DNA of 64,000 bases from a virus (IMGVR_UViG_3300011989_000005:70183-134182), one strand, 5' to 3'. Numbered from the stretch's first letter, positions 19,572-55,294 are shown. Notes: generated by a model not told the origin, from the sequence alone. Program-made: numbers and translations.

Positions 19572-19610
19572 ATAAGAAGAACGATTAACAACGTTCTTCT
19601 TATTTTTTTT
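19572..19610 (+). terminator. Intrinsic terminator after the repressor
   Basis: 12-bp stem ataagaagaacg / cgttcttcttat followed by a T run. Confidence 0.85.
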
Positions 19611-19645
19611 GCCCTTGACCACCAGTCTTACTCAACATATTTTGG
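19610..19645 (+). promoter_or_regulatory. Putative late promoter, copy 1
   Basis: TGCCCTTGA-N19-TATTTTGG. Confidence 0.7.
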
Positions 19646-19676
19646 AAACAAAAACAATAAAAACATAATAACGATT

Positions 19677-19991
19677 ATGACTGTACCAGACATCAACAAA
19701 CTGAAGCATGTCATCGCGCAGCAGCTTCACCTGTATTATGAGACACTGGAGGACGGCACGAACGTGCTCCGGCACATCCGCGTACACCAGCGCACACTTC
19801 AGATGCCCGCCGACGGCGGAGTGACCGTAGACATCGTGACACCCGACGGCAAGATAGCCGACGGCAAAGTCAACAGTCAGTCTGTAGAAGACGAGACCCT
19901 TGAGTTGCAGGACCTCTCGCCCGAGGCCCGTGAGGCTATGGAGAACCACTTCGCCACCGACGACGACGTGCGTGCCGCCCTCGGACTCTGA
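19677..19991 (+). CDS. Hypothetical virion-associated protein
   Basis: 104 aa; first gene after the late motif; C-terminus shared with the next gene. Confidence 0.7.
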   Translation: MTVPDINKLKHVIAQQLHLYYETLEDGTNVLRHIRVHQRTLQMPADGGVTVDIVTPDGKIADGKVNSQSVEDETLELQDLSPEAREAMENHFATDDDVRAALGL

Positions 19992-20086
19992 CACTTTAAG
20001 GCTGTCCAGCAGACTGCCGCACCACGGCAGCCCGCCAGCATATAGTTCACTTTATTTTTTTTACCAACACAAACAACAAAAGCAAC

Positions 20087-20533
20087 ATGGCAAGGACCAA
20101 TGCAAACAGCGCCCTTAACATGGCGCACCTCCTGCTCATCAAGCAGGCTCTTGATGCAGTGAAGACTGCAAGTGAAGGACAGGGCACCGAGCTCGCCGCC
20201 CGTATAGCAGCCCTGGAGGCTCTGCTCAACGACGGTGACAACGTGACCGCCGCCATCGACAAGTTCAACGAGATTGTCGCCTTCCTGGCCGGCATCGAGA
20301 ACACTCAGACCCTGGAGGGCATCCTGGCCGGCATCAACACCGCCATCGGTGCAAAGTACACCAAGCCCGCTGACGGCATCCCCGCCAGCGACCTGGCTGC
20401 CGCTATCCAGACCACGCTGACTAACGCTGCCACCGCCTACGGCTGGGGAGACCACGCTCAGGCCGGCTACATCGTGGGCGAGTTTGCCACCGATGCCGAG
20501 GTGCGCACAGCTCTTGGGCTGCCCGCCGAGTAA
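20087..20533 (+). CDS. Fibre-like helical structural protein
   Basis: AIDKFNEIVAFLAGI and KYTKPADGIPASDL segments resemble phage fibre repeats. Confidence 0.65.
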   Translation: MARTNANSALNMAHLLLIKQALDAVKTASEGQGTELAARIAALEALLNDGDNVTAAIDKFNEIVAFLAGIENTQTLEGILAGINTAIGAKYTKPADGIPASDLAAAIQTTLTNAATAYGWGDHAQAGYIVGEFATDAEVRTALGLPAE

Positions 20534-20548
20534 GCCTCTTCCGCTCAC

Positions 20549-20582
20549 GGAGAGCCCGGAAAGTCCGGGTTCTCCTTTCTTC
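20549..20582 (+). terminator. Intrinsic terminator-like hairpin
   Basis: ggagagcccgga-aag-tccgggttctcc followed by tttctt. Confidence 0.6.
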
Positions 20583-20606
20583 ACCTCTTAACAGCAAAAC
20601 AAGAAT

Positions 20607-21100: not shown

Positions 21101-22006
21101 ATGGCAGACAACATTGGAATAGTTACTATTCAAGAAGCGCTGAAGAACGTGCAGAACGGTCTCACGGCGCAAGACACGGCGTCGAAGACACAGACACAGA
21201 TGATCTTCGGACCCGACGGAGCACCTAACGGCAAGATACCCCTCTCGACCGATGCCGTCATCGACCTGAAGACAGGCAAGAAACTCTCCGACATCCTGGA
21301 ATACCAGAAGCCCTACGTCGACTCGGAACTCTTCGTAGACATGGGCCTGCCCTCCGGCACGCTCTGGGCCAAGGCCTCCATCGACCTCACCACGCCGTCG
21401 AAATTCCAGGAGGTGGACGGCGCAGTATCGCCCTTCAAGTACGAGTGCTCATTCTTCTCTTGGGGCAACCAGGACGGACACAATCCCAGCAGCACATCAG
21501 CCTTCGACTACAACTGGGGCGGCGTGAACGAGCAGGAGCCCTACTACGACGGACAGCCCTACGGCACGACACCCGGCAACGCCCTCACGGGCAACATACC
21601 GCCCTCGATGGACGCCGCGCGCGCCTGCCTCGGTGCGCCCTGGCGCATGCCAAGCATGGAGGACTTTTCGGAACTGTTCGCCAATATCGACTACATCGAC
21701 GCCGACGGCAACGTGGTGACGGCAGAGACCAGCATCGCCAAGACGGCTGCCGACAAGCGCGTGACGGTAAACGGCATCAACGGCCTCTACCTGCGCTCGA
21801 AGATCAACGGTAATCGTCTTTTCCTTCCGGCGTCCGGCCTCGGCTATGGCCGTTCGTGGGGCCATCGCACGGGCAATGGCTACTTCTGGTCGTCGGCGTT
21901 CCATTCGGCTCGCGGCGCCCGGTACCTGTCCTTCAATCCGCATGGTGTCGACCCGCAGGACACGAGCGGTCGGTACGGCGGTTTCCCGGTTCGGCCGGTC
22001 CAGTAA
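21101..22006 (+). CDS. DGR target protein (C-type lectin-like fold, probable receptor-binding protein)
   Basis: ATG 21101 after an A-rich leader; VDMGLPSGTLWA, WRMPS, LFLPASG, YFWSS and GFPVRPV motifs; 3' end is the VR. Confidence 0.9.
   Translation: MADNIGIVTIQEALKNVQNGLTAQDTASKTQTQMIFGPDGAPNGKIPLSTDAVIDLKTGKKLSDILEYQKPYVDSELFVDMGLPSGTLWAKASIDLTTPSKFQEVDGAVSPFKYECSFFSWGNQDGHNPSSTSAFDYNWGGVNEQEPYYDGQPYGTTPGNALTGNIPPSMDAARACLGAPWRMPSMEDFSELFANIDYIDADGNVVTAETSIAKTAADKRVTVNGINGLYLRSKINGNRLFLPASGLGYGRSWGHRTGNGYFWSSAFHSARGARYLSFNPHGVDPQDTSGRYGGFPVRPVQ
21817..22003 (+). repeat. DGR variable repeat (VR)
   Basis: 187 bp ungapped match to 22961-23147 with 22 mismatches, all opposite TR adenines. Confidence 0.97.
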
Positions 22007-22038
22007 TACTTCCGCCCGAACCATTCCTTTGTGCGCTT

Positions 22039-22080
22039 CACTGCTGCACCGCCGCGCCCCAGCGCGGCACAGCAGCAGTG
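22039..22080 (+). other. Hairpin or cruciform downstream of the VR
   Basis: cactgctgc / gcagcagtg outer stem and gccgcgc-ccca-gcgcggc inner stem. Confidence 0.7.
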
Positions 22081-22127
22081 GGGCGGACGAAGGAAACCAA
22101 CAGAAAAAATAACAGACAAATAGAGAT

Positions 22128-22808
22128 ATGTCAACAGAACAGACACAACAACAGAACCAGCCGTCTGCCAAAGTCCAGCTGCTCAGGCAGCAGGGCGAGC
22201 GGAAGGGATTCACCAACCAGGAAATCCAGACCATCGAGGCCGACAGGAAGGAGCCTGAGAAGTGGAACGTGGTTCATTTGCTGCGCGATGGAAACTACTG
22301 GCACGCCAACGAGTGGAGCGCGTGGCTGGTGGCTGTGGTCATCACCTCGCAGATGAAGCGCCTGCACCCCGACATGGAGATTGACCCGCCCACGCCGGTG
22401 AAGAAATTCGCCAAGAACATCAACGGTGAATACATCTTCGTGGGATTCCAGGAGAAGTCGTTCGACAAGTACCTGCCCAAGGAACTGGTGCTCGACTGGC
22501 GCGACGTGGAGGACGGGCGCATAGACGTGCCCGTCCAGATGCCCGACGACCACGGCGAGCTGACCTATGAGCGCCTGCAGGCCGCTTATCAGAAGTGGAA
22601 GAGCGAACAGCCGCTGTCGAATGAGAAGGGCAAGAAAGAAAGCACCAACGGCGACCGTCAGGGCCGTGGCGGCGCGATGGGCGATACGCCCGGCCACATC
22701 CTCGCCATCATGGGGCGCATCATGTCGCTGCCGCTTCACCGCACGTCGCCGATAGATGCTCACAAATTCCTCGAAGAGGTGCAGCGCGAACTGCTGGCGC
22801 ATCTCTAA
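22128..22808 (+). CDS. DGR accessory protein, MutS-like (MSL-type) rather than Avd
   Basis: Lies between VR and TR; VVHLLRDGNYWHANEWSAW and YIFVGF resemble MutS domain I; C-terminal SPIDAHKFLEEVQ helix. Confidence 0.65.
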   Translation: MSTEQTQQQNQPSAKVQLLRQQGERKGFTNQEIQTIEADRKEPEKWNVVHLLRDGNYWHANEWSAWLVAVVITSQMKRLHPDMEIDPPTPVKKFAKNINGEYIFVGFQEKSFDKYLPKELVLDWRDVEDGRIDVPVQMPDDHGELTYERLQAAYQKWKSEQPLSNEKGKKESTNGDRQGRGGAMGDTPGHILAIMGRIMSLPLHRTSPIDAHKFLEEVQRELLAHL

Positions 22809-22960
22809 ACAAAAACTGATAACCCATAAAAAAGAATGGTCCGGAAGTATTTCATAGGTCGCCCGTCATGCCCCCGCAGGGGGTGTGAAACAGTGAAGAG
22901 ACAGTCTGGTCTTGCCACGTGCAACCCCTCGCTGCCGTCGTGTAAGGTGGCGACCGAAGC

Positions 22961-23147
22961 TCTTTTCCTTCCGGCGTCCGGCAACGGCAATGGCCGTTCG
23001 TGGAACAATCGCACGGGCAATGGCAACTTCTGGTCGTCGACGTTCAATTCGGCTCGCAACGCCCGGAACCTGAACTTCAATCCGAATGGTGTCAACCCGC
23101 AGAACACGAACAATCGGTACAACGGTTTCCCGGTTCGGCCGGTCCAG
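22961..23147 (+). repeat. DGR template repeat (TR)
   Basis: 17 AAC/AAT codons in the VR frame; directly upstream of the RT. Confidence 0.97.
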
Positions 23148-23190
23148 CAATCTCAGCGGCCATTCTTTCTCTTCTTAACGCCACCGTCTG

Positions 23191-24387
23191 ATGACGCTTA
23201 CCTATCCACAACTGCTGCGCGACCTGCACGTGGCCTTCGCCAGTGCTGCCCGCCACAAGGGCAAGATGAGCTACGTCCGCCACTTCCGCTCACAGCTGCG
23301 CCTGAACCTGGCGTGCCTGGCACTGGTGCTCATCCTGCGTCGCTACGTGCCGCTGCCGTCGCGGTGCTTCATCGTGTTCCATCCCAAGCAGAGAGAGGTG
23401 TTCGCGGCGCAGTTTCCCGACAGGGTGGTGCATCATCTGTACTTCTATTATACCCACTGGCTCTACGAGGCGACGTTCATACGCGACTCGTACTCGTGCA
23501 TCGAGCATCGCGGCACGCTCGACGGCATCCTGCGGCTGGCGCAGCACATCCGGCAGGAGAGCCGCGGCTATACCCGCGAGTGCTACATCCTGAAGCTCGA
23601 CATTCGCGGCTATTTTATGCACATCGACAGACGGCGGCTGCTCAGGATATGTCTCTCGACGCTCGACAGGATGGCCACGCACCGATTGCCGAAGGAGGCA
23701 GCAGCGGTGCTCGGCGTATCACCACGGAGCACGTGGCAGCAGGTGCTCGACATGGACTTCGTGCGCTGGCTGACGGAGGTCATCGCCATGCTCGACCCGA
23801 AGACATCCTGCGAGAGGGCTATGCCCATCGAGGCGTGGAACGGTCTCGATCCCGCAAAGTCGCTCTTCTGCACGGAGGACGGGTGCGGACTGCCCATCGG
23901 CAACCTGACCTCGCAGCTGCTGTCGAACGTCTACCTGAACGTGCTCGACCAGTTTATGAAGCGTGTGCTGAAATGCCGTCGCTATGGCCGCTACGTGGAC
24001 GACTTCTACGTCGTGTCGTGCGACCGCGAGTGGCTGCTGCAGCTGGTTCCGAAGGTGCGGCGGTTCCTGAAGCAGGAGCTTGCACTCGACCTGCACATGG
24101 GAAAGGTGTGCATCTGCCGCTCGACGCAGGGCGTGGAGTTCCTGGGAGCCTACGTCCGTCCGTGGCACATCACGCCGTCGGCAGCCTCGCTGCGGCACAT
24201 ACACCGCCATCTGCGCGAGATGGACTTCAGCCGTCCCGACAAGGTGGTGCGCACGGTCAACTCCTACCTCGGCATCCTGCGCCAGACGGCCAGCTACCGC
24301 CTGCGCCGCGAGCTGTTCTTCCGGCCCGAGTACCTGCGCATCGGCCACTTCGACGCCGACATGACCTGTATGCAGCGAGCCGCATAG
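23191..24387 (+). CDS. DGR reverse transcriptase
   Basis: PKQREVFAAQFPDRVVHH, LKLDIRGYF, GLPIGNLTSQ (SQ signature) and YVDD. Confidence 0.96.
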   Translation: MTLTYPQLLRDLHVAFASAARHKGKMSYVRHFRSQLRLNLACLALVLILRRYVPLPSRCFIVFHPKQREVFAAQFPDRVVHHLYFYYTHWLYEATFIRDSYSCIEHRGTLDGILRLAQHIRQESRGYTRECYILKLDIRGYFMHIDRRRLLRICLSTLDRMATHRLPKEAAAVLGVSPRSTWQQVLDMDFVRWLTEVIAMLDPKTSCERAMPIEAWNGLDPAKSLFCTEDGCGLPIGNLTSQLLSNVYLNVLDQFMKRVLKCRRYGRYVDDFYVVSCDREWLLQLVPKVRRFLKQELALDLHMGKVCICRSTQGVEFLGAYVRPWHITPSAASLRHIHRHLREMDFSRPDKVVRTVNSYLGILRQTASYRLRRELFFRPEYLRIGHFDADMTCMQRAA

Positions 24388-28714: not shown

Positions 28715-29110
28715 ATGACCCGCGACTACTTAGACATTGACCGTCACTGGGGCATCCTGGCCTACTATGACGTCATCCCCGCCGACTTCTCACAGCTCGG
28801 CCCCATCCTCCGTGAGTTCTCCTGTCCCGAGGAGGAGATAGAAAAAGCCTGGCAGACCATTCACTACTCAAACAAGGCATTCATTTTCAATGTCCCCTGG
28901 GCACGCATGTCTGTCCTTGTTGTCGGCCACGTCACCCACCCCTCGCAGTTCCTCAACTCCCTTCTGCACGAGTTCGACCACCTACAGGATGCTATCCTCA
29001 AATACTACGACGTGCCCCACGGTACCGAAGACGCAGCATACCTCCAGGGCTACCTCGGTCAAATAGCCTACGACGGCATCCTGCCGCTTCTCTGTCCTGT
29101 CTGCCCTTGA
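28715..29110 (+). CDS. HExxH-motif protein (possible zinc metallopeptidase)
   Basis: LLHEFDHL with downstream EDAAYLQG. Confidence 0.7.
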   Translation: MTRDYLDIDRHWGILAYYDVIPADFSQLGPILREFSCPEEEIEKAWQTIHYSNKAFIFNVPWARMSVLVVGHVTHPSQFLNSLLHEFDHLQDAILKYYDVPHGTEDAAYLQGYLGQIAYDGILPLLCPVCP

Positions 29111-29137
29111 CCTTTTCCCGCTTGTTAGTTATTTTGT
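29102..29137 (+). promoter_or_regulatory. Putative late promoter, copy 2
   Basis: TGCCCTTGA-N19-TATTTTGT. Confidence 0.7.
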
Positions 29138-29158
29138 GCGGAAAAGGCGATATACACA

Positions 29159-39859: not shown

Positions 39860-39927
39860 AATTTTGTGTTTGTGTTGATTGAGGGTTTATTACTATTGTT
39901 TACTGTTTCTGTGTTGTGTTGCTAAGC

Positions 39928-39963
39928 CGAATTTACGGAATGCCGAAATGGAAATCAAGGGCA
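39928..39963 (-). promoter_or_regulatory. Putative late promoter, copy 3 (capsid)
   Basis: TGCCCTTGA-N19-TAAATTCG. Confidence 0.7.
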
Positions 39964-40017
39964 GCCTGAGCCGCTTGTTCCGTAAGCTGCGATATTATCG
40001 CAGCCATCCGGCGCGAG

Positions 40018-41847: not shown

Positions 41848-41877
41848 AATCGTTTGTGTCGTTAATTGTTTCTGTCT

Positions 41878-41913
41878 GCATTATAATGGCAAGCGCTCTG
41901 ATAATCAAGGGCA
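41878..41913 (-). promoter_or_regulatory. Putative late promoter, copy 4 (protease)
   Basis: TGCCCTTGA-N19-TATAATGC. Confidence 0.65.
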
Positions 41914-41918
41914 ACTCT

Positions 41919-43145: not shown

Positions 43146-43185
43146 GGTCGTCGTTTTTGTGTGGACTGTCGTTATATTGTTATAC

Positions 43186-43221
43186 CGAAATTACGTGATG
43201 ACGAAAGAGGAATCAAGGGCA
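43186..43221 (-). promoter_or_regulatory. Putative late promoter, copy 5
   Basis: TGCCCTTGA-N19-TAATTTCG. Confidence 0.7.
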
Positions 43222-43301
43222 GGAGGATTAAGTGAAGAGTGAAAGATAACAAGCGGCGACCCAGTGCGGCAGCAAATTCTTCACTCTTCACTCTTCACTT
43301 C

Positions 43302-46300: not shown

Positions 46301-49300
46301 TGCGCTCCGTGTAGTAGGCGTCCAGTTCGTGCAGGTAGGCATCCATCTCGTCGCGGAACTGCTTCTTGGCCCCGCGCTCCTTCTTCGGGTCGAGCCAGTC
46401 GCCCGTGTTCGTCAGGTGGCGGGCGTGCAGCTCGTCCTGAATCTTCAGGCGCTCAGTGTTGTACCACTCGATAACCGTGCGCATGTCGCTCGACATGCCC
46501 GCCTCGATGGCTTTCTTCAGCGCCTTGTCCTCGTTGAGCACGGCCTTTACGTCGGTGTCGGTCTGGATGCTGTTCACGAACTTGTTCATCTGCTCGCGGC
46601 GGTTCACCAACTGCTCGGCGGTCATCTCCGTGTAGGTGGTGGAGTCGGCACGCTCGGAAGTGCCCCATGGGGAATTACCGCTACCCTCGTTGCCGTTGGT
46701 GAAGTCGGTGTTCTGTATCTTCGACTCGGCACGCTCGGCGGCATCCACGGCACGGATGCTCTCGTCGGCCACTTGGCGCAGTCCCTTCTCGTAGCTCTTC
46801 ATGTTCTCGATACTGCGCTCTATCGTGCCTTTGCGTTTGTCGTTGGTGAAATAGTCGGCATTATTGGCAAACAGGTTATTGTATGAACGCTGCTGCTTAT
46901 ACACCTCCACGGCCAGTTTCTCCTTCTCCTCGCCCTCGGCTTTCTGATAGCGGGCGAGTGCATCCTTCCAGTCGGCCATGATGGAGTTGAGTGTTCTCAC
47001 TGCCGACTCGCGCGACTCCTTGCGCAGCACATTGGCACGGGCATCAAACACGCGCTCTGCCGTCTCTACCTGCTTCTGGTATTCCTCTACCGACGCCCGG
47101 TAACTCTCGGCACGGGCACCGATGTTGCTGGCAATACTGCTCACTATCTCGTTGTCGGAGGCTCCCCTGCCCGACTGTGCATAGGCATCGCGGAAGTCCT
47201 TCTTGGCACTCTGACTGATAAACTGCCGGTTGGCCATGACGATTTTCTGAACCTCTGCCTGGAATTTCTTCTGGTCCTTGGCGTATTTCTGTGCGGCCTC
47301 GCTGACGGCAACCGACACACGGGCGTAGGCTTCGTCGTTGCTGCCGAAGTACGACGCAATAAGGTCGTCGGTGCTCGATGCGCCCTTGCGAACCTTGCCG
47401 CCATACTCCTGCTCAATGTCGCTCAGAGCGGCCTCCTTCTGTTTCAGGGTGATGGTCTCGCGCAGTTTCTTGTTGATCAGTTCGCGGGCTTCAGCCAGCT
47501 GTCTTGCACTGGCGGTCTCTGAGAGCATGTAGCCCAGATAGGCACCATACTTCGAGTTGATTTCACGGATGATGCGAGCCGATTCCTTGCCCTCGGCGTT
47601 CACGCGCTTCATGCCCTCCTCCACCTTGGCGGTCTGCTCGGCGGCTTTCTTCTCACTGCCAGCCAGCTTATCGGTTTCCTTCGACAGCTTGTCCGTCTTG
47701 TCTGCCGACTGCTCCACCGCCTTGCCTTTCTCGGTCTCTGCCTTGGTCTGCTCCTTGGCGGCGAGTGCTGCCACGCGCTCCTGCTCCCTCACCTTGGCAA
47801 GTGAGCGGAACAACTTGTTGGCGGCAGTCATCTGTTTGTGTAACTGCTTTTCAACCTCGCCCATAGCCTTCGACGTTTCCGACATGGCGTTGGCGGCATT
47901 TCTCAGCGAGTACACCAGCATGGCCATGGCAGATGCAGCAGCAACAAACACATTGGCCCATTGTGCGAGAGTAAGGGCTCTCAGTTTAAGGATGACAAGA
48001 TCCAGAGCGATGCGCCAGTTCTTGAAGAGGTCGATAATCCTGGCAAGACCCAGCGCGATGGCATTCCACATAATACCTATAATATTCGTCTTCAGCACCA
48101 ATACGAGCGTAGAGATGGTAGCCAGAGCGGTAGTAAGTCCGCCGCCCCCCATCAGCAGGTCAACTATCTTGCGCAGTCCGTCGATGACGGTACCAAGGAA
48201 TCGCTGCGCATTATCACTCACAAACGCTTCCTCAAACGCATTCTTCAGCCTCTCCCACTTCGCAGCCGTCGTCTCGTTCATCTTGTCGAACTCCTGCTGT
48301 ATGGCGATGTTCTCCTCATACGCCTCGCCGGCCACGCCGAGTTGGCGGCGCAGCTCGTCCACGTTCTGCGACAGTCCGGAGAACACGATGCCCGCACGGG
48401 CGCCCTGCTGGTTCAGGTCCTTCATGATGTCGCGCATACCGGCCATGCCCAGCATCTGCTCCACCGAGTCGGCGTCCATGCCCGTGTCCTTGATGCGCTG
48501 CAGTATCATCAGTATCACCTCCATGCCGCGCCCCGTGTCGAAGAGGTTGCGGATAGTGTCGGGTGTCACGCCGATGGCCTTGGCCAGCTCGAAGGCGTTG
48601 TTGCGTATGGCGGGAATCATGCGGCTCAGTGCCGTTGCCGACATCTCGATGCGCATACCCAGGCTACTGACCGTCGAACCCAGTGCGGCCACCTGGTCGA
48701 TGGTGATGCCGCTCTGTGCGCCCACGGCGCCTACGCGCTTCACGAAGTCGGTAATCTCTGGGGCGGTACTGGCACTGCTGGCACGCAGACGGTCGATGGT
48801 CGAAGCAATCTTCTCCATAGCCACAGCCGTTGCCGACGAGCCCTCGACGGTGCCCTCCTGCAGCTGCTTGCGTATCTTGTCCACCTCGCCCGTGGCGATG
48901 GCCACGCGCATCATCTCCGTAGCCGCCTCGCGTCCCATTTCGGGCAGGGCAATCATCAGTTTGTTGGCAGCCTCGGTGAATCCCTGCACGTCCTCCAGCG
49001 TCTTCAAACCCAGCTGTCCGGCACTGGCGGAAATTTCCATGAGTGAGGTCAAACTGGTCCTGACGTCCATTTTCTTCAGGTTCTCCGACAGCCGTCCCAC
49101 CTCGTCAGCGGTGAAGCCCGTCGTCTTGCGCACCTCGCCCATGCGGTCGGAGAGGTCCATCAGGTCGCCCATCGTGGCGGTGACTTTCTGCATGGCTACG
49201 GCGGTACCGACGTACACACTGAGGTAAGTCCTCACGCGGCTCCATGCTTTCTCGAAGGCCGATGCCGCACCTTTCGAGCTGTTGGCCAAATCCTTCATCT

Positions 49301-51713
49301 CCTGGTCGGCTGCTTTCACCTTCTTGGCCAGTTCGTCGAAGGCCTGCTGTCCCTCCTTGGTGGTGCGGTCCATAGCGTTCAGCGCCAATCGCCCTTGCTC
49401 TACGGCTTGCTTCAGAGCATTAAACGAACGGCCCTTTGGAGAGTCGAGTACACTCTGGACTTCTTGGGAGAGATGACCGACATTTTTCAGTTCTACCCCT
49501 ATTCGTTGAAGTGCCTCCTGCATACGTCGCCATGCCAGCCCGCCTTTTACGGCTTTTGCTGACATCTCTTCCAATACCTTCTTGGCTTGCGTCAACTGTT
49601 CAATGGAACCTTTGAAACCACCCTTACCAGCTTGTGAGCTGATTTGCATCGCCTGCTTCCACGACATCGTTTGCTCGGCGGCTTTCTTTGCCGACATGCC
49701 TGCCTGTTCCAAATATTCGTTTATCTTGGCGATAATATCAACATAAGTTTTCTGCGGCAGGGTGTCGCGCCATTTTTTCAAGGCTTCTGCCTGCTGCTTC
49801 ACCTCCCCCATACTGGCGGTCTCATGGTCGCCACGCTGGAAGAAGTCGAAGGCTTCCTGTCCCTGCTTGCGCACCATGCGGCGTTGTAGGCGCTCCACCT
49901 CCTTCAGATTATCCTCATATTCTTGTAGGTTCTTTCCGGCGTTCTTTGGGTCGTCGATGAGTTTTTGCCAATACTGATGCTGGCTTTTCAGCACATCCGC
50001 CGAAACGTCGTTGAACTGCGCCATCTGATTAGTCATCTCCGTCAGCTGATTCTTCATCAGCCTGTCGGTCTCCTTGCGCTTCTGTGCCACGCGCTCCTCT
50101 TCCAGCCCGAACTGGTGCAGATAGTTCTCTGCTTTGACGATGGCCTCGGAGTACTGTTTGTGCAACGTGTCGCCCGTCTTCAGTGCCTGCTGATATTGCT
50201 TGGCGGCTTCGATGGCGCTGCGCAGTTCGCTCTCGCTCATGTTGGTGTAGTTGCCGCTGAGTATGCTGGCCGACTGCTTCTGCGCTGTGATGGTAGCCCG
50301 CTCGCGTTCCTCCTGCGTCACCTGTTCCAGTTTCTGGCGGTACTGGTCGAGTTCGGTGCTGCCATGCTCGGCACCTGCCACCATCGCCTCCCAATATTTC
50401 TTCACCTCCTGCAAGCCCGATGCCGACAGCGACGAGAGATTGTTCATCTGCTGACTGATGTGATCGGCGGCTTCGCTCTTGGCCAACTGGTCAAGATATA
50501 CCCTTCCCTGCTCCACCATCTTGTTATACTGAAACCATACGGGAATGCCTTTCTGCACGGAGTCGCGTAGTTTCTCGGCCTCCTGCACAGCGGCTTTTAC
50601 TTCGCTGACGCCAAACTTTGACGGGTCGCCCAATATGTTGCCCAGTTCCGTGCGTCGGGCGTTGCGCTGATAGCCATCAATCTTCTTCAGAGCGGCTTCT
50701 GCTTTGTTGAACTCCGTAGTGCCCTCGGCTGCCCCGTTTTTCTGTGTTTCCCAATACTTGCGCGTCTCTACAAGTGCATCAGCCGATAGGTTCTTCAAGT
50801 CGCGCAAACGCTTGTTCATCGTCTTAGCCAGTTCCTGCTCCAGTTGCAGTTGCTCTTTTTCACGTGCTGCCTGCCGTGCTGCCTCTATACCGTGCTCCTT
50901 TAGGTACTGGTCGGCGCGGACGATGTTGTCGGCCAGTGCCTTTGCCTCCGGGCTGGCGGTCTTGTAGGTGGAGAGCAGTTCGCGGGCGTTGGTGATGGCG
51001 GTGCGTATCTCGTCCTCGGTGTAACGCCCGAAGTCCTTGCTGCCCAACAGCGATACGGCGGCCTCGCGCTCCTGCCGGCGGATGCTGGCCACGTGAGTCT
51101 CCATCTGCGTCAGCTGCTGGTTGTACTTGTTCCACTCGTCGGTGCCCTTGGGTACGAGCGTGAGGATTTCCTTCAGTCCCTTTATCTCCTTGTCGAGCGT
51201 GGCCTGTGCTATGACGCCGCCCTTGTCGAGCGTCTCGATAACCTTCTGCGTGTCGCGGTCGAGGTTGTTCAGCTGCTTGCGGCTCTCCTCGATCACCTTG
51301 TTCAGGTCGCGCTGCTGCTCCAGGTCTTCTGGATCGCTCTCGCGGACGCTGCGCTTGCGGGCTTCGGCGGCGTTGATGGCGCCCTTCAGCTCGGCGCGGC
51401 TGCTCTTCTCTATCTCGCCCAGACGGATGTTCTGCACCACGGTCTCCAGTGCCGTCGCACCCTTGACGAGTTCGCGCAGGGCCTGGTCGTATGACTTGGC
51501 GGCCTTCTGTGCCTGGCGGAACTTGTCGGCCACGTCGAACTCCACGCCGTTGGCATCCTTCATCCGCTTGATACCCTTGTCGAGTGCTTCCTGCAGTCGG
51601 TCCACTTCGTCGTGTGCATCCTTCGAGCTCTGGCGCATGGCGTCGAGTGCGGGGTTCACGCCCTTGGTGTCGGCGCGAAACTGGATGGTTGCTAAAGTTA
51701 TCTTGTTGCTCAT
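43302..51713 (-). CDS. Tape measure protein
   Basis: 2803 aa helical; TP901-like core VRKTTGFT...AGQLG; hydrophobic segments; C-terminal LVGEAGREAII. Confidence 0.9.
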   Translation of the reverse strand: MSNKITLATIQFRADTKGVNPALDAMRQSSKDAHDEVDRLQEALDKGIKRMKDANGVEFDVADKFRQAQKAAKSYDQALRELVKGATALETVVQNIRLGEIEKSSRAELKGAINAAEARKRSVRESDPEDLEQQRDLNKVIEESRKQLNNLDRDTQKVIETLDKGGVIAQATLDKEIKGLKEILTLVPKGTDEWNKYNQQLTQMETHVASIRRQEREAAVSLLGSKDFGRYTEDEIRTAITNARELLSTYKTASPEAKALADNIVRADQYLKEHGIEAARQAAREKEQLQLEQELAKTMNKRLRDLKNLSADALVETRKYWETQKNGAAEGTTEFNKAEAALKKIDGYQRNARRTELGNILGDPSKFGVSEVKAAVQEAEKLRDSVQKGIPVWFQYNKMVEQGRVYLDQLAKSEAADHISQQMNNLSSLSASGLQEVKKYWEAMVAGAEHGSTELDQYRQKLEQVTQEERERATITAQKQSASILSGNYTNMSESELRSAIEAAKQYQQALKTGDTLHKQYSEAIVKAENYLHQFGLEEERVAQKRKETDRLMKNQLTEMTNQMAQFNDVSADVLKSQHQYWQKLIDDPKNAGKNLQEYEDNLKEVERLQRRMVRKQGQEAFDFFQRGDHETASMGEVKQQAEALKKWRDTLPQKTYVDIIAKINEYLEQAGMSAKKAAEQTMSWKQAMQISSQAGKGGFKGSIEQLTQAKKVLEEMSAKAVKGGLAWRRMQEALQRIGVELKNVGHLSQEVQSVLDSPKGRSFNALKQAVEQGRLALNAMDRTTKEGQQAFDELAKKVKAADQEMKDLANSSKGAASAFEKAWSRVRTYLSVYVGTAVAMQKVTATMGDLMDLSDRMGEVRKTTGFTADEVGRLSENLKKMDVRTSLTSLMEISASAGQLGLKTLEDVQGFTEAANKLMIALPEMGREAATEMMRVAIATGEVDKIRKQLQEGTVEGSSATAVAMEKIASTIDRLRASSASTAPEITDFVKRVGAVGAQSGITIDQVAALGSTVSSLGMRIEMSATALSRMIPAIRNNAFELAKAIGVTPDTIRNLFDTGRGMEVILMILQRIKDTGMDADSVEQMLGMAGMRDIMKDLNQQGARAGIVFSGLSQNVDELRRQLGVAGEAYEENIAIQQEFDKMNETTAAKWERLKNAFEEAFVSDNAQRFLGTVIDGLRKIVDLLMGGGGLTTALATISTLVLVLKTNIIGIMWNAIALGLARIIDLFKNWRIALDLVILKLRALTLAQWANVFVAAASAMAMLVYSLRNAANAMSETSKAMGEVEKQLHKQMTAANKLFRSLAKVREQERVAALAAKEQTKAETEKGKAVEQSADKTDKLSKETDKLAGSEKKAAEQTAKVEEGMKRVNAEGKESARIIREINSKYGAYLGYMLSETASARQLAEARELINKKLRETITLKQKEAALSDIEQEYGGKVRKGASSTDDLIASYFGSNDEAYARVSVAVSEAAQKYAKDQKKFQAEVQKIVMANRQFISQSAKKDFRDAYAQSGRGASDNEIVSSIASNIGARAESYRASVEEYQKQVETAERVFDARANVLRKESRESAVRTLNSIMADWKDALARYQKAEGEEKEKLAVEVYKQQRSYNNLFANNADYFTNDKRKGTIERSIENMKSYEKGLRQVADESIRAVDAAERAESKIQNTDFTNGNEGSGNSPWGTSERADSTTYTEMTAEQLVNRREQMNKFVNSIQTDTDVKAVLNEDKALKKAIEAGMSSDMRTVIEWYNTERLKIQDELHARHLTNTGDWLDPKKERGAKKQFRDEMDAYLHELDAYYTERKTRIEEAGTDEGLTEAEIRNRTLANEMEWQQRRAELQKLYSRKQKEVTQEELNAIYHIISERTGDTESFVKAQIAKTNQFVDAIEKSGDKGAAIVHRWMSQVELDTERSYLKGQQALTKQMKAIEDIIDKERPFNGITKQLRESLSTMDILTGDMRKEYDELMKAGKDMRDFNERQGRAELQRTSFLLGEAEQAYSTTIDRVMQQMREKNMGQWADWLSIRPEQQEALMAQLRQTYDAIQDAIKKEASQLKKQAEIMWNNILVPGGDGKTTMKQMLDRTVAQLGIDQGRVSRANSLIGAGVASDRVADKLAIQQMRLQLTMQEHYYNLMKKQGRAHVDMLNQQADAAERRGNAEEATRKRLDAQHAEMALNLATAKEETELAKQREDIIARTEESQNRLYTELRSWADLLTSSLQGVFEASHAGDAEYYNERAKLNLTGKGGPGAGTYVVIDDAGTSDATAHYEHLDERQALERQHEIEVQNAQAEAWRKLMDDLNMKMSETITDQLNALLQNSVIDANTQAVIKNTEALYASMGAAGGSGSGDGYKRNAEGFAVDEQGQIIAPVQPTGETPSGEGMPKAPWQMTDEEVAKSQENMGLLWQTYKEQAIAAETEKAEMLTELPGYVPSPLSITDEQIEATGEKLDALKQKEIDASTEIAQAKMQAQEMVKKSEQQNDQQMVKTNKSSFAAMTAAANMYGIAYQTMSNDNLDTSQKVQMMIVQAAGQAAISMLTASMAASTGETAANAPSWISKTLKELGPIGGPVAVGVFTALIGGLMGLATSKIAKSKSEIAQATGASVGAGRLATGMLTYAEGNVNELTDPASLTPGRQYNVDGADGKTYRAKYMGKGAKTHITNGPEFHLVGEAGREAIIDAKTTRLLQMNDTGIWRDIQTLYNGGSISGLSTRRRRGTGMPAFADGNVGEFEDMSGDAIVANGTGLGFDPIALQSSLDANTAVQQALLERLNQPIVAVNKWTGSDGIPAMYNKMQKEAQRHGENYL

Positions 51714-51746
51714 AATCGTATGTGAATATGGTGGGTGATGGTGTTG

Positions 51747-52274
51747 TTACTTTCTGCGCCGCATGAGCAGTTCGTTCATCTGCTCGTAGTTCTCGCGGTT
51801 AGAGCCGGCGGCGTAGGTGAGGAAGCCGAGTCCGATGAACGAGAAGTGGTTCACCAGCAGCCGCTCGAACTTGCGTGCCTGCTTGCGCATCTCTGTGGTG
51901 CTGTGGGGCTTGGCCCTGCGCTTGCGTCCACGGACGGGGATGGGCTTCCATGCCCTCGTGGTGAAGGGGTCGATGGGGGTGTAGGGGTTGTTCCTGCCCA
52001 CGGCCAGCTCCACGAACTGTCCGTACTTCAGGTAGGTTTCCTGAAACACCTCTGCGTCGCCGCCCGAGTCGCTCCATGCCTTCCATCCGATGGAGCGTAT
52101 CAGCTGTCCGGTCTTGATGGCCGTCAGTCGCTTGATGTTCTTGCGTGAGTCCTGCTTACCGAAGGTGATGAAACGGCGTATCATCTGCATCACCTGCTCG
52201 TCGCGCCAGTCAAATTTCGTGGCGAATATCTGGTCTGCATACGGGTCGTGCTCCCGCCATCGTTCGTTTGCCAT
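51747..52274 (-). CDS. Putative neck/tail-completion protein
   Basis: KTGQLIRSI and YGQFVELAVG resemble HK97 gp10-like motifs. Confidence 0.5.
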   Translation of the reverse strand: MANERWREHDPYADQIFATKFDWRDEQVMQMIRRFITFGKQDSRKNIKRLTAIKTGQLIRSIGWKAWSDSGGDAEVFQETYLKYGQFVELAVGRNNPYTPIDPFTTRAWKPIPVRGRKRRAKPHSTTEMRKQARKFERLLVNHFSFIGLGFLTYAAGSNRENYEQMNELLMRRRK

Positions 52275-52316
52275 GATGTCTGCTTATTGTCTGTTTGTGT
52301 TGGTGATTTCTGAAGG

Positions 52317-52352
52317 GGAAGATAGGGGGTGAGAGGGTGAAAAGCAAGGGCA
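52317..52352 (-). promoter_or_regulatory. Putative late promoter, copy 6
   Basis: TGCCCTTGC-N19-TATCTTCC. Confidence 0.6.
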
Positions 52353-52460
52353 GTGCGAGGCGAGAGCAGAAACACGAAAGCGTGCTTTCGGTGACTATGC
52401 CGAGCCGCTGCCTGCGCTCGGCGAAGCCAGGGACAATGCGAGGCAGAAGCAGAGACTTAT

Positions 52461-52501
52461 AAAAAAGCGGATGCAGCAGACCGTCGCGGTCTGCTGCATC
52501 C
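52461..52501 (-). terminator. Intrinsic terminator
   Basis: ggatgcagcagaccg / cggtctgctgcatcc stem next to A6 (T6 on minus). Confidence 0.75.
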
Positions 52502-52588
52502 TGATACAATTTAATTTAGCAAACTTTTTTGCCTGCGAGCCTCGCGGCGGGCGGATGGCAATAATTTGTACATCATATTATTATAACC

Positions 52589-53191
52589 TTAAATGATTGT
52601 TGTCTCTTCAGGTTGGCTGGTCGATGATATATCGGGTTGGCGGGTCAATGCTGCATCGGCTTCTTCATTTACCCTCTCCTCATCCATCTGCCGGACGAGC
52701 ACGTTGGCGAGGCAGTGCTGCCATCGGCGGTGCAGCTCGCCGCCCTCGCGCTCGGCTACGTCCATGGCGCGGTAGAGCTTGTGCTCCGTATCGCCCCACT
52801 GCCCCCGGTAGAGTGCCGTCGGCTCCGCCAGCTGCTCCTCAACGGAGGCCAGCAGGCGCATCACCAGGCGCGCCTCTGCGGTGCGGGCGGTGCGTATGCG
52901 GTCGGCCAGGGCGTGGTAGTAGGCAGCGTCGCGGGGCTGGGCAGTTCTGCCGTCCTGCTTTCCGTTATTTCGATATTCCGGTATATTGTTATTGCGATTT
53001 TGTTCCGGCGAAGCCAGCGTCTCCAGCAGCGCCTGCGCCGCCAGTTCCGCATCGTCGGGCTCCGGGGTGAGCGGTGCGGGCTTCACGCCCTCGATGCGGA
53101 GGGGAAACCTCTCCCCCACCCCATTCCCCGCAGGGCGGGGAGCAGTATGCTTGCGTCTGAATATCTTCTTGATAGCGTCTGTCAGTTTCAT
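52589..53191 (-). CDS. Hypothetical protein, probably leaderless
   Basis: ATG 53191 (MKLTDAIKK) lies 4 nt after late motif copy 7. Confidence 0.65.
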   Translation of the reverse strand: MKLTDAIKKIFRRKHTAPRPAGNGVGERFPLRIEGVKPAPLTPEPDDAELAAQALLETLASPEQNRNNNIPEYRNNGKQDGRTAQPRDAAYYHALADRIRTARTAEARLVMRLLASVEEQLAEPTALYRGQWGDTEHKLYRAMDVAEREGGELHRRWQHCLANVLVRQMDEERVNEEADAALTRQPDISSTSQPEETTII

Positions 53192-53195
53192 GCCC

Positions 53196-53231
53196 GCAAA
53201 ATAGGGCGCGACGGTATGAAATTCAAGGGCA
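53196..53231 (-). promoter_or_regulatory. Putative late promoter, copy 7
   Basis: TGCCCTTGA-N19-TATTTTGC. Confidence 0.7.
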
Positions 53232-53237
53232 GAGAGT

Positions 53238-53274
53238 AAAAAGATGCAGGGCACCGTCGCGGCGGCCTGCATCC
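53238..53274 (-). terminator. Intrinsic terminator, paralogous to 52461-52501
   Basis: gatgcagg...cctgcatc stem next to A6. Confidence 0.65.
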
Positions 53275-53402
53275 GAACATTTAATTTATACCTATGACAA
53301 ATTACAAGATTTATTCTCAAACGACCCGCCGGCAGATCTGACGGTATGCCTGGCGGGGACTCTTGTCTTTATGAGGTATCATTTTAACTTCGGTGAAAAT
53401 GG

Positions 53403-55235
53403 TCACGCCCCCTGCCCCGCTACCGTTTCGACCATACCCGTCGGGTTGCGGTCCAATGTTGTGAAACTCATCTGACGTATGGCTGGCTCCAGATGCGAGT
53501 CGAACCTGTTGAACGTGAAGACATCCATCAGGAAGCGGAGGTACATGCGCTGCCGCACGTTGAGCAGCTGCTGCTTCATCAGGCGTATCTCGCGCAGGGC
53601 GGTTCCGCCGTTAGAGGCGCTGACCATCGGCACACCGATGTCGCGGGGGTCAACACCGAAGGCGAGGAAGATGGGTGAGGTCGATAGTTCCAGTTCCTCC
53701 TTGCCAGCCTTCACCGCGTCGTTGGTAGTCTCTTTCACATCGACTATCTCGACGTTGTGATGATCCTTGCCGTCCTGGCCGAGCCACATGAACTGTCGCA
53801 TCATCTTGCCGTTGTTCTCGCGCTGCTGCAGGAACGTCTCTACGTCCTGGTCCAGCCCGTCGATGAACTCCTGCTGCGCCGCCTTGTCGCCGGCAATGCC
53901 ATTGTCGGCAAACACCATGTCGAGGTAGTCGAGCGAGATGTAAATGATACGGCCCCAGGTGGTGTTGTTCTCGCGCTGCTTGGCCTTGTCGTAGAGGATG
54001 GTGCTGGAGAAATCGTAAGCCTTAGATGTAAAGATGCTCCACCAGTCGGGCTGCTGATAGTAGTTCTTGTTGCCGTAATAGACGGGGCAGACGGCCCATG
54101 TGGGGCGGGCATTGATGCGTTTGCGCTGGTTCGACGATACGAGGTAGCGCATGTCGCTGACGCGGGCGGTAGCCTCGCAGACGGGGTACATCGTCACCTT
54201 GTCGTCGTGAGCCCCTATTGTGTTGTGCTCGCCGATGCCCTTCGCCCTGAAGCGCTCACCGAAGTACACGTGCTGGATATGGCGGTATTCCGACATCGCC
54301 TCATAGCGGATGCCGTCTATGATTTTCAGTTGACCTATCTTCACGATGCGCGGGTCCCAGCGGCCACGGCGGCCTCGCTCGAAGCCTACGGTGGGGAAGT
54401 AGAGGTCGTACATCATGCAGTCGAGCATGCACTGCGAGAGGTGCAGGTCGAGATTGTTCTCCTCCAGGAACTGCTTCACGCCGGGCACGTGGCGCTCCAT
54501 GTCGCTGTCGTCTTTCTCGTCGTAGCCCTCCCATGTGCGCTCCCACTCGTAATAAGCCTGCTCCCAGTAGTCGGGGCCGATGCCCTGCAGCCGCTTCTTC
54601 GGACGGTTCTCGGGGGCTATCTCGGTGATGGGCTTCAGCGGATCTTCACCGGGGGCGGCAGCGGGGTCGATAGCCATGTCGCCACCGTACTCGTCCTGCT
54701 GCTCTCCCTTGCGGGCCTGCTGGCAGCGCAGCCGCAGGTTGAAACCCGCGTGCTGAAACTCGCAGTAGGTGTCGTCCTCGAAGTGGTACATCAGCCTTAC
54801 GCTCAGCCCCGTGGCCAGGTCGGCCAGGTAGCGCAGCGGTGCGGCGGTGTAGGGGCTTGCCTTCGCCAGCGAGTAGATGACGCCGGGCAGGTTGTCCTTT
54901 GGTCCCCACTTCACGTAGCCGCGTCCCATCGGATTGCCGTCGGGTCCGCTGATGGTCATCGGCGTTGAGTCGGTGCTGTCAAACGACCATGCCACCTGCG
55001 AGAGCGGGCCGTTGCTCAGCGTGCCGCAGCTCATGCCGGAGGCCATCGACTGTGCCTCACCCTTTGACGGGTCGCGGTCGCCGAGGGAGAGCGAGCGCAC
55101 CTTGCCTTTGAGCACGTCGAGCGCCACAAACCCGCGCTTCCGCAGCGAGCGGTCGAGCTTCTGATATTCCGAGAAGGTCTTCGGGCGGTGTATGATGCTG
55201 CCCGCATTACCTCTGTTGTTCTTATTCTTAGCCAT
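53403..55235 (-). CDS. Putative portal protein
   Basis: 610 aa from MAKNKNN; directly downstream of the terminase; WGPKDNLP, YYQQPDWWSIF and AFGVDPRDIG motifs. Confidence 0.75.
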   Translation of the reverse strand: MAKNKNNRGNAGSIIHRPKTFSEYQKLDRSLRKRGFVALDVLKGKVRSLSLGDRDPSKGEAQSMASGMSCGTLSNGPLSQVAWSFDSTDSTPMTISGPDGNPMGRGYVKWGPKDNLPGVIYSLAKASPYTAAPLRYLADLATGLSVRLMYHFEDDTYCEFQHAGFNLRLRCQQARKGEQQDEYGGDMAIDPAAAPGEDPLKPITEIAPENRPKKRLQGIGPDYWEQAYYEWERTWEGYDEKDDSDMERHVPGVKQFLEENNLDLHLSQCMLDCMMYDLYFPTVGFERGRRGRWDPRIVKIGQLKIIDGIRYEAMSEYRHIQHVYFGERFRAKGIGEHNTIGAHDDKVTMYPVCEATARVSDMRYLVSSNQRKRINARPTWAVCPVYYGNKNYYQQPDWWSIFTSKAYDFSSTILYDKAKQRENNTTWGRIIYISLDYLDMVFADNGIAGDKAAQQEFIDGLDQDVETFLQQRENNGKMMRQFMWLGQDGKDHHNVEIVDVKETTNDAVKAGKEELELSTSPIFLAFGVDPRDIGVPMVSASNGGTALREIRLMKQQLLNVRQRMYLRFLMDVFTFNRFDSHLEPAIRQMSFTTLDRNPTGMVETVAGQGA

Positions 55236-55258
55236 AATTTTATGTTGGATTTTTGAGC

Positions 55259-55294
55259 CTAAGATATGCGCGGATAGGCGGTTAATCAAGGGCA
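55259..55294 (-). promoter_or_regulatory. Putative late promoter, copy 8 (portal)
   Basis: TGCCCTTGA-N19-TATCTTAG. Confidence 0.7.

Follow-up and report, generated by a model that had tools for sequence, protein, structure and literature searches.

Late promoters of phages P1 (Lpa), T4 (gp55) and SPO1 (gp33/34) depend on a phage activator or sigma factor, and their multi-copy elements stand before morphogenesis and lysis operons. In the phage family studied here, virion, packaging and lysis genes are preceded, at a constant distance, by a common box of nine letters. In placement this box is like those late elements, but its sequence differs. Its layout, with a fixed N19 to a TA box, resembles that of T4 middle promoters. 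There, a phage box of about 9 bp (MotA) takes the place of the host upstream element or overlaps it, its distance to a host-like downstream element is fixed, and AsiA and MotA redirect the host polymerase, a sigma appropriation without a phage sigma factor, as described in the available part of the T4 account (PMC2988021). For Bacteroidota, the available text of PMC7366714 gives the sigma-A or sigma-ABfr consensus as TTTG near -33 and TAnnTTTG near -7. The accessible part of PMC9723704 places sigma-A boxes at -12 to -5 and gives the SM5 promoters of Flavobacterium psychrophilum a box, TAnnTTGY, that is one base shorter.

The window, the whole stretch of 64,000 nucleotides analyzed, comprises bases 70183-134182 of a circular 134182-bp phage record. 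It contained seven exact copies of TGCCCTTGA, at 19610(+), 29102(+), 39963(-), 41913(-), 43221(-), 53231(-) and 55294(-); the shuffle mean was 0.60, and seven or more were found in 0 of 100 shuffles. The sequence-only reading had counted eight copies. Eight sites were indeed present, but not as identical copies, as the site at 52352(-) is a variant, TGCCCTTGC, with one mismatch. A one-mismatch search of the window returned 25 sites against 14.6 expected, so the other one-mismatch matches are mostly chance. The invariant spacing proposed earlier was borne out: at all eight sites a TA-starting box follows the 9-mer after exactly 19 nt. All eight also faced, as had been noticed, a downstream gene, in each case an ATG-started ORF that begins 40-104 nt on, counted from the 9-mer's first base. 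For the bipartite pattern TGCCCTTG-N20-TAnnTT, 0.00 matches were expected and 7 were found; only the TT requirement kept out the site at 41913 (TATAAT). These results confirmed that the motif is real and non-random in the window. The sites and their surroundings are as follows.

19572-19603 (+): terminator-like hairpin directly upstream of copy 1.
19610-19650 (+): copy 1, TGCCCTTGA at 19610-19618, N19, TATTTTGG at 19638-19645, predicted +1 A at 19650; downstream, ATG 19677 of a 104-aa gene, then tail-fibre-like genes and a DGR on the same strand.
29102-29142 (+): copy 2, TGCCCTTGA, N19, TATTTTGT, predicted +1 A at 29142; ATG 29159 of a 456-aa core gene, then 447-, 418- and 871-aa genes.
39923-39963 (-): copy 3, TGCCCTTGA at 39963-39955, N19, TAAATTCG, predicted +1 A at 39923; ATG 39859 of a 474-aa core gene (Flg_new_2 Ig-like domain).
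41873-41913 (-): copy 4, TGCCCTTGA, N19, TATAATGC, predicted +1 A at 41873; ATG 41847 of a 609-aa head maturation protease (phrog_53, E 1.1e-35).
43181-43221 (-): copy 5, TGCCCTTGA, N19, TAATTTCG, predicted +1 A at 43181; ATG 43145 of a 408-aa core virion-module gene.
52312-52352 (-): copy 6, variant TGCCCTTGC, N19, TATCTTCC, predicted +1 C at 52312 with an A adjoining; ATG 52274 of a 175-aa HK97-gp10-like gene, then a 2803-aa PhageMin_Tail protein.
52469-52501 (-): terminator-like hairpin, 15-bp stem and T run, between the copy 7 unit and copy 6.
53191-53231 (-): copy 7, TGCCCTTGA, N19, TATTTTGC, predicted +1 at the A of ATG 53191; the 200-aa gene 52589-53191 would therefore be leaderless; position 40 is also where the ATG stands in G006.
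55254-55294 (-): copy 8, TGCCCTTGA, N19, TATCTTAG, predicted +1 A at 55254; ATG 55235 of a 610-aa core gene, the putative portal of the sequence-only reading.
55354-55385 (-): site resembling a host-type promoter, TTTG-N20-TATCTTTG, some 70 nt upstream from copy 8.

Unit boundaries would be marked by the hairpins just upstream of copies 1 and 6. The motif is not confined to 19610-55294, the range first given for it. Six further gene-facing intergenic copies lie outside the window, at genome positions 480(-), 8606(+), 10262(+), 43977(-, N18), 48452(-) and 48468(+, N18 to the TA box). Genome-wide, the TGCCCTTG 8-mer occurred 20 times, 14 of them at gene-facing intergenic sites. The six left over, namely an intergenic one at 22172(+) without a TA box and five inside ORFs without a box, are about the chance level for an 8-mer by arithmetic estimate. 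When 8-mers were ranked by intergenic enrichment, TGCCCTTG came first (12 intergenic regions, 20 genome copies). The block of minus-strand genes that occupies window 1-18000 had no copy, in keeping with the statement that none precedes early genes. The window boxes also departed from TAnnTTTG as had been reported, the canonical form being present at 0 of 8 sites.

To define the register, 143 TGCCCTTG sites were collected across the genome and 26 related loci, and 115 of them were outside ORFs. TAnnTT stood at exactly N19 in 75 of the 115 and at other spacings from N14 to N24 in 6; with the looser box nAnnTT, 96 qualified. Columns were counted over 91 distinct sites. These had been selected on the 8-mer core, which is invariant for that reason; the other columns are unselected. 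The ninth base was A in 80 sites and the first base of the box was T in 73. After the TT of the box came G in 54 and then C in 49. TAnnTTGY was the form of 38 boxes and 53 had other forms; 10 were fully canonical TAnnTTTG. Position 40 was A in 84 of the 91 sites, where an A-rich leader came next; in the window, 7 of 8 sites had this A. Upstream of the 9-mer the 91 sites showed no conservation, indicating that the motif does not belong to a dispersed repeat. With the box at -12 to -5, as the available part of PMC9723704 has it for sigma-A boxes, position 40 is the expected +1. The predicted layout would put the 9-mer at -40 to -32, including a TTG at -33, the TA box at -12 to -5 and the conserved A at +1, so that transcripts are predicted to start at the A 12 nt past the T of the TA box. 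One gene's ATG starts exactly at position 40 in genomes G000 and G006.

Sigma-A promoters are built similarly. Both classes have two elements with TTG 20 nt before the TA box, and both have A-rich leaders without Shine-Dalgarno sequences. Host-type TTTG/TTG-N20-TAnnTTTG sites occur in the phage genome itself, at 697, 4594, 11089, 107035 and 125543. The host -33 TTG is contained in the 9-mer in the same register as in these host-type promoters, which the sequence-only reading had overlooked. The differences lie in the letters. In place of the weak TTTG of sigma-A the phage class has nine invariant bases, the base before TTG is always C (CTTG) and never the host's T (TTTG), and most -7 boxes are of the form TAnnTTGY or are degenerate rather than TAnnTTTG. 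Among gene-facing intergenic sites of five complete genomes, canonical TAnnTTTG was present in 13 of 16 TTTG-N20-TAnnTT sites versus 4 of 38 9-mer sites (Fisher p 9e-7). This showed that both elements leave the host consensus jointly in 9-mer sites.

T4 middle promoters, as far as the available part of their account goes, have a stringent -10 and a tolerant MotA box, whereas in the phage class the upstream element is invariant and the downstream one loose. The MotA box is centred at -30; the phage box, at a predicted -40 to -32, keeps the host TTG. The host phylum and the sigma factor also differ. With SM5, the likeness is in the downstream box, TAnnTTGY being the commonest form in the phage class; SM5, in the accessible text of PMC9723704, is a host regulon, whereas the phage class is phage-borne and has a 9-mer upstream.

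The 9-mer stood upstream of the homolog of the 408-aa gene in 20 of 20 related loci, with protein identities of 53-87%, and it was unchanged in the most distant relatives found. In four fully fetched relatives, orthologous operons were headed by it. Orthologs of the 610-, 408- and 1070-aa genes had it upstream in 5 of 5 complete genomes, and several further orthologs were motif-driven in 3-4 of the 5. The orthologs of the genes behind copies 2, 3 and 6 were motif-driven in G010 and G009, in G009, G008 and G006, and in G008 and G006, respectively, and the copy 4 site recurs in relatives. Equal frequency in host regions had been named beforehand as evidence against a phage regulon. Host chromosomes showed no excess: in five host-type MAGs (15.4 Mb), 42 of 43 matches were phage-borne, on contigs with homologs of this phage. 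For the 7-mer core, 31 of 37 matches were on phage contigs, and 6 were elsewhere versus 11 control matches. Among 80 IMG/VR loci examined, 7 carried at least two copies, and all 7 had homologs of this phage. At the sequence level, these comparisons showed a motif that is conserved in the family and appears absent from host chromosomes.

Genes directly downstream of the copies included protease, gp10-like, tape-measure-like, fibre-like and Rz-like spanin genes, and an endolysin lay further along the operon headed by the copy at genome 480. Apart from the PhageMin_Tail protein, the tail or fibre matches were weak, including the tail/virion PHROG matches downstream of copy 2. The capsid, connector and portal genes named in the sequence-only reading are putative. 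A HU-like protein (PF00216) and a 240-aa membrane-type protein were motif-driven without a demonstrable virion role, and family searches gave no match for the motif-driven 1070-, 387- and 169-aa core proteins. The proposal of a promoter-like element that heads virion-module transcription units was upheld as far as these family matches and the upstream conservation at orthologous genes reach. Host-type promoters preceded maintenance-type genes (ParA-like, HTH repressor-like and a 200-aa core gene), and the genome is plasmid-prophage-like in make-up, with HTH repressor-like, ParA-like and anti-restriction genes. The HTH gene and its surroundings are located as follows.

18830 (+) and 18958 (-): host-type -7 boxes near the HTH gene.
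19026-19535 (+): Cro/C1-type HTH gene, 169 aa (PF13443, E 2e-5).

Together they look like an immunity switch, placed with the early minus-strand block on one side and copy 1 on the other. A homolog of the HTH protein was found in only one of four complete relatives, and the motif in all four.

The proteins that might read the motif were searched for in the whole genome. A six-frame search with the sigma-70-family models PF04542, PF08281 and PF04545 returned nothing at E <= 1. TIGR02937 gave a single match of 13.5 bits, below the 42.9 cut-off, to an acidic protein of 202 aa, of which just one of four relatives has a homolog. The ArpU and RinA models found nothing in the phage genome. The earlier observation that the window holds no sigma factor thus extends to the whole genome with the models tried, which would miss very divergent sigmas. 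One candidate factor was a core protein family:

genome 6855-7457 (-): 200-aa core protein, 351 homologs.

It matched no known family, and its confident model had no PDB fold match. Its three C-terminal helices resembled winged-helix domains at Z 4-5.7, below the noise level of the tool. Host-type boxes were upstream of its gene in at least four of five complete genomes, with a variant box in the fifth.

On balance, TGCCCTTGA-N19-TAnnTT is probably a family-specific class of virion, packaging and lysis promoters read by host RNA polymerase together with a putative phage specificity factor. The carriers would form one family of roughly 130-kb phages of rumen Bacteroidales, possibly phage-plasmids, and the class would head virion, packaging and lysis operons plus a few core genes without an assigned function. 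The host multi-subunit polymerase would read it only in modified form. The modification may be a phage-encoded specificity factor, either a sigma of very divergent sequence or a protein that binds the box and assumes the -33 contact itself, and the modified polymerase would produce a phage-timed (late) regulon. Promoter activity, the start site and late timing are what we infer, as are the factor's existence and its identity. A more specific version, in which a phage protein on TGCCCTTGA retargets sigma-A polymerase to virion and lysis operons throughout the family and the 200-aa core protein is one candidate, is a tentative suggestion that we consider unlikely as it stands; if true, such sigma appropriation in Bacteroidota would bring a transcription factor of a new type and give Bacteroidales an orthogonal promoter system.

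Unmodified host sigma-A might instead read these sites as strong promoters, with TGCCCTTGA as a phage-optimized extended -33 element and timing from repression, replication or read-through. We judge this unlikely but regard it as a serious competitor. The TTG keeps the host spacing, with N20 to the TA just as the genome's host-type promoters have it, and 10 of the 91 boxes are canonical, so plain sigma-A could read at least some sites. Copy 4 can also be read as TTGATT-17-TATAAT (score 10/12), and the models tried found no phage sigma. Invariance of the 9-mer across phages that are down to 36-52% protein identity would also fit a slowly evolving host reader. Against this, C precedes TTG in all 9-mer sites where host-type sites have TTTG, and a non-canonical -7 box is found in 34 of 38 9-mer sites versus 3 of 16 TTTG sites. 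Neither the 9-mer nor its 7-mer core is in excess on host chromosomes, and a phage with repressor-like and partition-like genes would pay a high price for lysis and virion promoters that are constitutive. The chromosomal counts bear also on an alternative host sigma, a second RpoD-like paralog or the reader of the SM5 promoters, whose regulon should leave copies on host chromosomes: no more than one of the 43 full matches lay off phage contigs, as did 6 of the 37 matches to the core versus 11 controls. Each of three MAGs searched did have two RpoD-like sigmas (the G001 pair being 286 aa each), and 38 of the 91 sites have TAnnTTGY, the box that SM5 promoters carry at -12 to -5, but the SM5 account, in its available part (PMC9723704), describes no upstream 9-mer. 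We consider this reading improbable.

The strict register speaks on another proposal, that the 9-mer is a phage repressor operator over -33 that shuts virion and lysis promoters in a carrier state. Asymmetric multi-site operators are known from phage P1, and the genome has HTH repressor-like, ParA-like and anti-restriction genes, a make-up like that of a plasmid prophage. However, an operator need not keep the N19 register or a -7 change; the strict N19 (75 versus 6 sites) and the correlated -7 change are properties of polymerase recognition, and the HTH protein does not follow the motif through the four complete relatives. We hold this to be quite improbable. A phage-encoded RNA polymerase is more improbable by far. 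Several large proteins have no family match, which is nothing direct, and no polymerase family was found among the scanned proteins, a part of the genome's genes. Single-subunit polymerases would not be expected to use a bipartite architecture that has a degenerate spacer and keeps the host register.

The DGR reported downstream of copy 1 was present on the same strand, and 22 of 23 VR-TR mismatches were at TR adenines. The proposed tie of its expression to copy 1 is tentative, since a terminator-like hairpin intervenes. The parts of the DGR are as follows.

21817-22007 (+): VR.
22961-23151 (+): TR.
23191-24387 (+): RT.

A terminator-like hairpin at 20549-20575(+) sits between copy 1 and the DGR.

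The 9-mer TGCCCTTGA occurred seven times in the 64-kb window, against a mean of 0.60 in shuffled sequences; none of 100 shuffles contained seven or more. An earlier sequence-only reading had proposed eight copies of a late promoter-like motif here. All of its coordinates were confirmed, seven as exact copies and the one at 52352(-) as the variant TGCCCTTGC. Its claims on spacing and orientation also held: exactly 19 nt (N19) separated the 9-mer from a TA-starting box at all eight sites, and each site faced an ATG-started ORF. The bipartite pattern TGCCCTTG-N20-TAnnTT, built on the 8-mer core TGCCCTTG, gave seven matches in the window against 0.00 expected. The site at 41913, with the box TATAAT, missed this pattern at the TT requirement alone.

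The window covers bases 70183-134182 of a 134182-bp record. Bases 2-99 of the record were identical to its last 98 bases (window 63903-64000), and an ORF of about 435 aa spanned the junction of the two ends, indicating that the record, classed as 'linear', is a closed circle. The whole genome contained 20 TGCCCTTG 8-mers, and TGCCCTTG ranked first among its 8-mers by intergenic-enrichment score. Fourteen were intergenic, faced a gene and had a TA box, the eight window sites being among them. One other was intergenic and five were within ORFs, all six without the box. The gene-facing copies outside the window, each with a TA box, were as follows (genome coordinates).

480, minus strand; on the circle, just past the right end of the window
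8606, plus strand
10262, plus strand
43977, minus strand; spacing N18
48452, minus strand
48468, plus strand; N18 to its TA box

A megablast search of window positions 38000-60000 against a phage collection found no match. A search with the 408-aa protein encoded downstream of one copy recovered 20 IMG/VR loci with 53–87% identity, and six rumen MAG contigs labelled Prevotellaceae, Bacteroidales, Bacteroidaceae or Prevotella. These labels, together with A-rich leaders without Shine-Dalgarno sequences, fit a Bacteroidota host. The 9-mer was present upstream of the 408-aa homolog in all 20 loci, and the spacer sequence varied among them. This genome and 26 related loci together contained 143 TGCCCTTG sites. 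Among the 115 outside ORFs, 96 had nAnnTT at exactly N19; with the stricter TAnnTT, N19 was found at 75 sites versus six at other spacings from N14 to N24. Of this genome and four fully fetched relatives, all five carried the motif at the head of the 610-, 408- and 1070-aa gene orthologs, and three or four carried it at the head of several further virion-module orthologs. The most distant relatives, with 36–43% identity in a 200-aa core protein (genome 6855-7457), still had an identical box.

Five MAGs (15.4 Mb), each with a related phage contig, were scanned with the full pattern. Of 43 matches, 42 fell on contigs carrying homologs of this phage; the remaining one was on a 20-kb contig. With a 7-mer core in four MAGs, 31 of 37 matches were on phage contigs, and the other six showed no excess over 11 control matches. 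Among 80 loci examined from the listed matches of an IMG/VR pattern scan, all seven with at least two copies held homologs of this phage. The motif is a signature of a phage family rather than a host regulon. Literature searches found no description of the box among the papers listed, which leaves its unpublished status unproven.

The anatomy of the element was read from columns that had no role in selection, using 91 distinct sites. The ninth base was A in 80 sites, and the spacer began pyrimidine-rich. Box position 1 was T in 73 sites and G in 14; after the box TT came G in 54 and then C in 49. Position 40, counted from base 1 of the 9-mer, was A in 84 sites and was followed by an A-rich leader. 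Sequences 5' of the 9-mer were not conserved, which means that the motif does not belong to a dispersed repeat. A Flavobacterium psychrophilum study places the sigma-A box TAnnTTTG at -12 to -5 (PMC9723704). On that scale, position 40 would be +1, the 9-mer would span -40 to -32 and its TTG -35 to -33. The predicted +1 was A at seven of the eight window sites. TAnnTTGY was the commonest box form (38/91) and is the same as the F. psychrophilum motif SM5 (PMC9723704).

Several relatives carried one or two extra tandem units of about 75–80 nt upstream of the true promoter-like copy. The units begin with TGCCCTTGG or TGCCCTTGT, contain a GCCGAG...CTCGGC hairpin and have no TA box at N19. They were found in related loci L015 (13389), L020 (13267), L021 (16603), L030 (13385) and L039-L041.

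Promoters of host type, TTTG (or TTG)-N20-TAnnTTTG, were also present in this genome, in a register identical to that of the 9-mer class. They and the boxes around a Cro/C1-type HTH gene were located as follows.

Genome 697, host-type promoter
Genome 4594, host-type promoter
Genome 11089, host-type promoter
Genome 107035, host-type promoter
Genome 125543, host-type promoter
Window 19026-19535, Cro/C1-type HTH gene, with host-type -7 boxes on both sides at 18830 (plus) and 18958 (minus)

A host-type promoter preceded a ParA-like gene in 5/5 genomes and also a 418-aa gene. Host-type boxes lay upstream of the 200-aa core gene in at least four of five complete genomes; in the complete relative G008 the box was a variant. 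The product of another gene with such a promoter starts, judged by eye, like a lipoprotein signal. The HTH region (window 18755-19603) would form an immunity-like switch. A strong terminator-like hairpin (19572-19603) follows the HTH gene and lies immediately 5' of the first copy, at 19610(+). In gene-facing intergenic regions of the five genomes, canonical TAnnTTTG was found at 13 of 16 TTTG-N20-TAnnTT sites versus 4 of 38 9-mer sites (Fisher p 9e-7), and in the 9-mer class TTG was preceded by C at every site. The two classes diverge at both elements jointly.

The sequence AAAGCTACAC was found at window 36814(-) and at eight further genome positions. It stands 9–14 nt ahead of the ATG in at least seven genes, most of which have host-type promoters, and is a possible element of the leader or of translation initiation. 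The ParA-like gene (genome 1102-1968) has a Walker-type motif, judged by eye. An anti-restriction protein (genome 21030-22100) matched phrog_7245, and a 1676-aa DarB-like antirestriction/methyltransferase/helicase protein (genome 31440-36470) matched phrog_10089 (E 1.6e-256). These three genes suggest a possible plasmid-prophage lifestyle.

The genes downstream of the motif included the following.

Head maturation protease, matching phrog_53 (E 1e-35)
HK97-gp10-like protein and 2803-aa PhageMin_Tail protein, family matches
474-aa protein with an Ig-like Flg_new_2 domain
Tail, fibre and virion proteins, weak matches
Coiled-coil protein after the 43977 copy, with Rz-like spanin and holin matches
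HU-like protein after the 10262 copy, family match

The 1070-, 387-, 169-, 240-, 610-, 648- and 408-aa proteins downstream of the motif had no family match. A PDB sequence search with the 1070-, 387-, 610-, 648- and 408-aa proteins gave zero matches, leaving the labels portal, terminase and capsid without confirmation. Among the gene labels of the sequence-only reading, capsid, connector and portal found no supporting match. The model of the 474-aa protein (pLDDT 52) was too poor for use. The motif-driven 240-, 387-, 1070- and 169-aa proteins are core genes with homologs in 4/4 complete relatives. Tail and fibre genes adjoin the homolog of the 169-aa gene and the 1070-aa operon in relatives. 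The minus-strand unit headed by 480(-) contains a 75-aa gene, the junction-spanning gene, tRNA-Gln and an endolysin gene (window 58265-59053); in relatives, the equivalent promoter is directly upstream of the junction-gene homolog. The tRNA-Gln (CTG anticodon, window 62617-62688, minus strand) lies within a string of packaging and lysis genes.

For the 200-aa gene at 52589-53191(-), the ATG coincides with the predicted +1 both here and in the complete relative G006. Its mRNA is predicted to be leaderless if this +1 holds. Its orthologs in two further relatives have a 12–13-nt leader starting with AAA.

A complete DGR was found at window 21101-24387, plus strand, consisting of these parts.

21817-22007, plus strand, VR, at the 3' end of a 301-aa gene (21101-22006)
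22961-23151, plus strand, TR, 88% identical to VR, with 22 of 23 mismatches at TR adenines
23191-24387, plus strand, reverse transcriptase ORF (PF00078, E 1.6e-11)

The sequence-only reading had proposed that the motif would tie DGR expression to the lytic phase. The DGR is real and lies downstream of the copy at 19610 on the same strand with no intervening copy. A terminator-like hairpin (20549-20575) stands between them, so co-expression is possible.

The motif is very probably a promoter, which is the only reasonable reading of its fixed register, gene-facing placement, short leaders, ortholog-level conservation and the terminator-like hairpins directly 5' of the copies at 19610 and 52352. 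Gene content and the contrast with the host-type class make it likely that these promoters form a late regulon. We lean slightly towards a phage factor being required. Nine invariant bases in place of the host's weak TTTG, the correlated loosening at -7 and the absence from host DNA point to such a factor; the failure to find a sigma factor in the phage genome and the fully canonical -7 box at some sites count against it. A conserved host factor reading the box would also fit, as the box does not vary across this diverged family of phages.

Profile searches of the phage genome found no sigma factor. An acidic 202-aa protein with a weak TIGR02937 match was rejected as a sigma candidate, as it had no sigma Pfam match and a homolog in one of four relatives. 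Pfam, PHROGs or NCBIfam scans of about 100 of the approximately 150–190 ORFs, including the last early-block genes, found no regulator except the HTH gene. The 200-aa core protein (genome 6855-7457, minus strand) was the sole candidate factor raised, and had no link to the box. It had 351 homologs, with at least 49% identity among those aligned, and no Pfam, PHROG or NCBIfam match. Its model (pLDDT 90.8) had no Foldseek match in PDB at E ≤ 0.001; a wide VIA search gave a best Z of 5.7, below noise and covering only the C-terminal 55 residues. An atlas look-up of the 222-aa (200-aa) and 152-aa core proteins returned unnamed clusters only. On the host side, each of three rumen MAGs with a related phage contig encoded two RpoD-like sigma factors. 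Those of the MAG G001 (L198 and L201) have 286 aa each and near-identical region 4.

The 9-mer class reads as a family-specific, extended -33 promoter class of Bacteroidales phages. Functionally, it comes closest to the T4 middle promoter, in which a 9-bp MotA box stands a fixed distance from a -10 element of host type (PMC2988021). Compared with it, stringency is reversed in the 9-mer class and the host TTG is kept.

A conserved late-promoter element is a familiar idea in many phages, and the value here lies in the system and phylum; the principle itself is not new. Bacteroidota hosts have an unusual primary sigma factor, and transcription control in their phages is, to our knowledge, almost unmapped. 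An invariant, host-absent box in the host -33/-7 register is a testable handle that could show how these phages redirect host polymerase to genes for virions and lysis. In genomes whose genes are mostly unannotated, the box also shows where operons begin. It bears on the timing of expression of the DGR beside the fibre genes, and the engineering of Prevotella or Bacteroides could gain promoters that depend on the phage (orthogonal promoters).

Six RNA runs were found as contigs, and four were compared with window 37500-57499. The RNA contig pieces from these four runs covered virion genes. A high-depth piece at 43266-43305 is a simple heptamer repeat (GAAGAGT-like). This repeat lies just past the stop of the 2803-aa gene and draws many unrelated metatranscriptome contigs. 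Relatives have other short tandem repeats at the same intergenic place.
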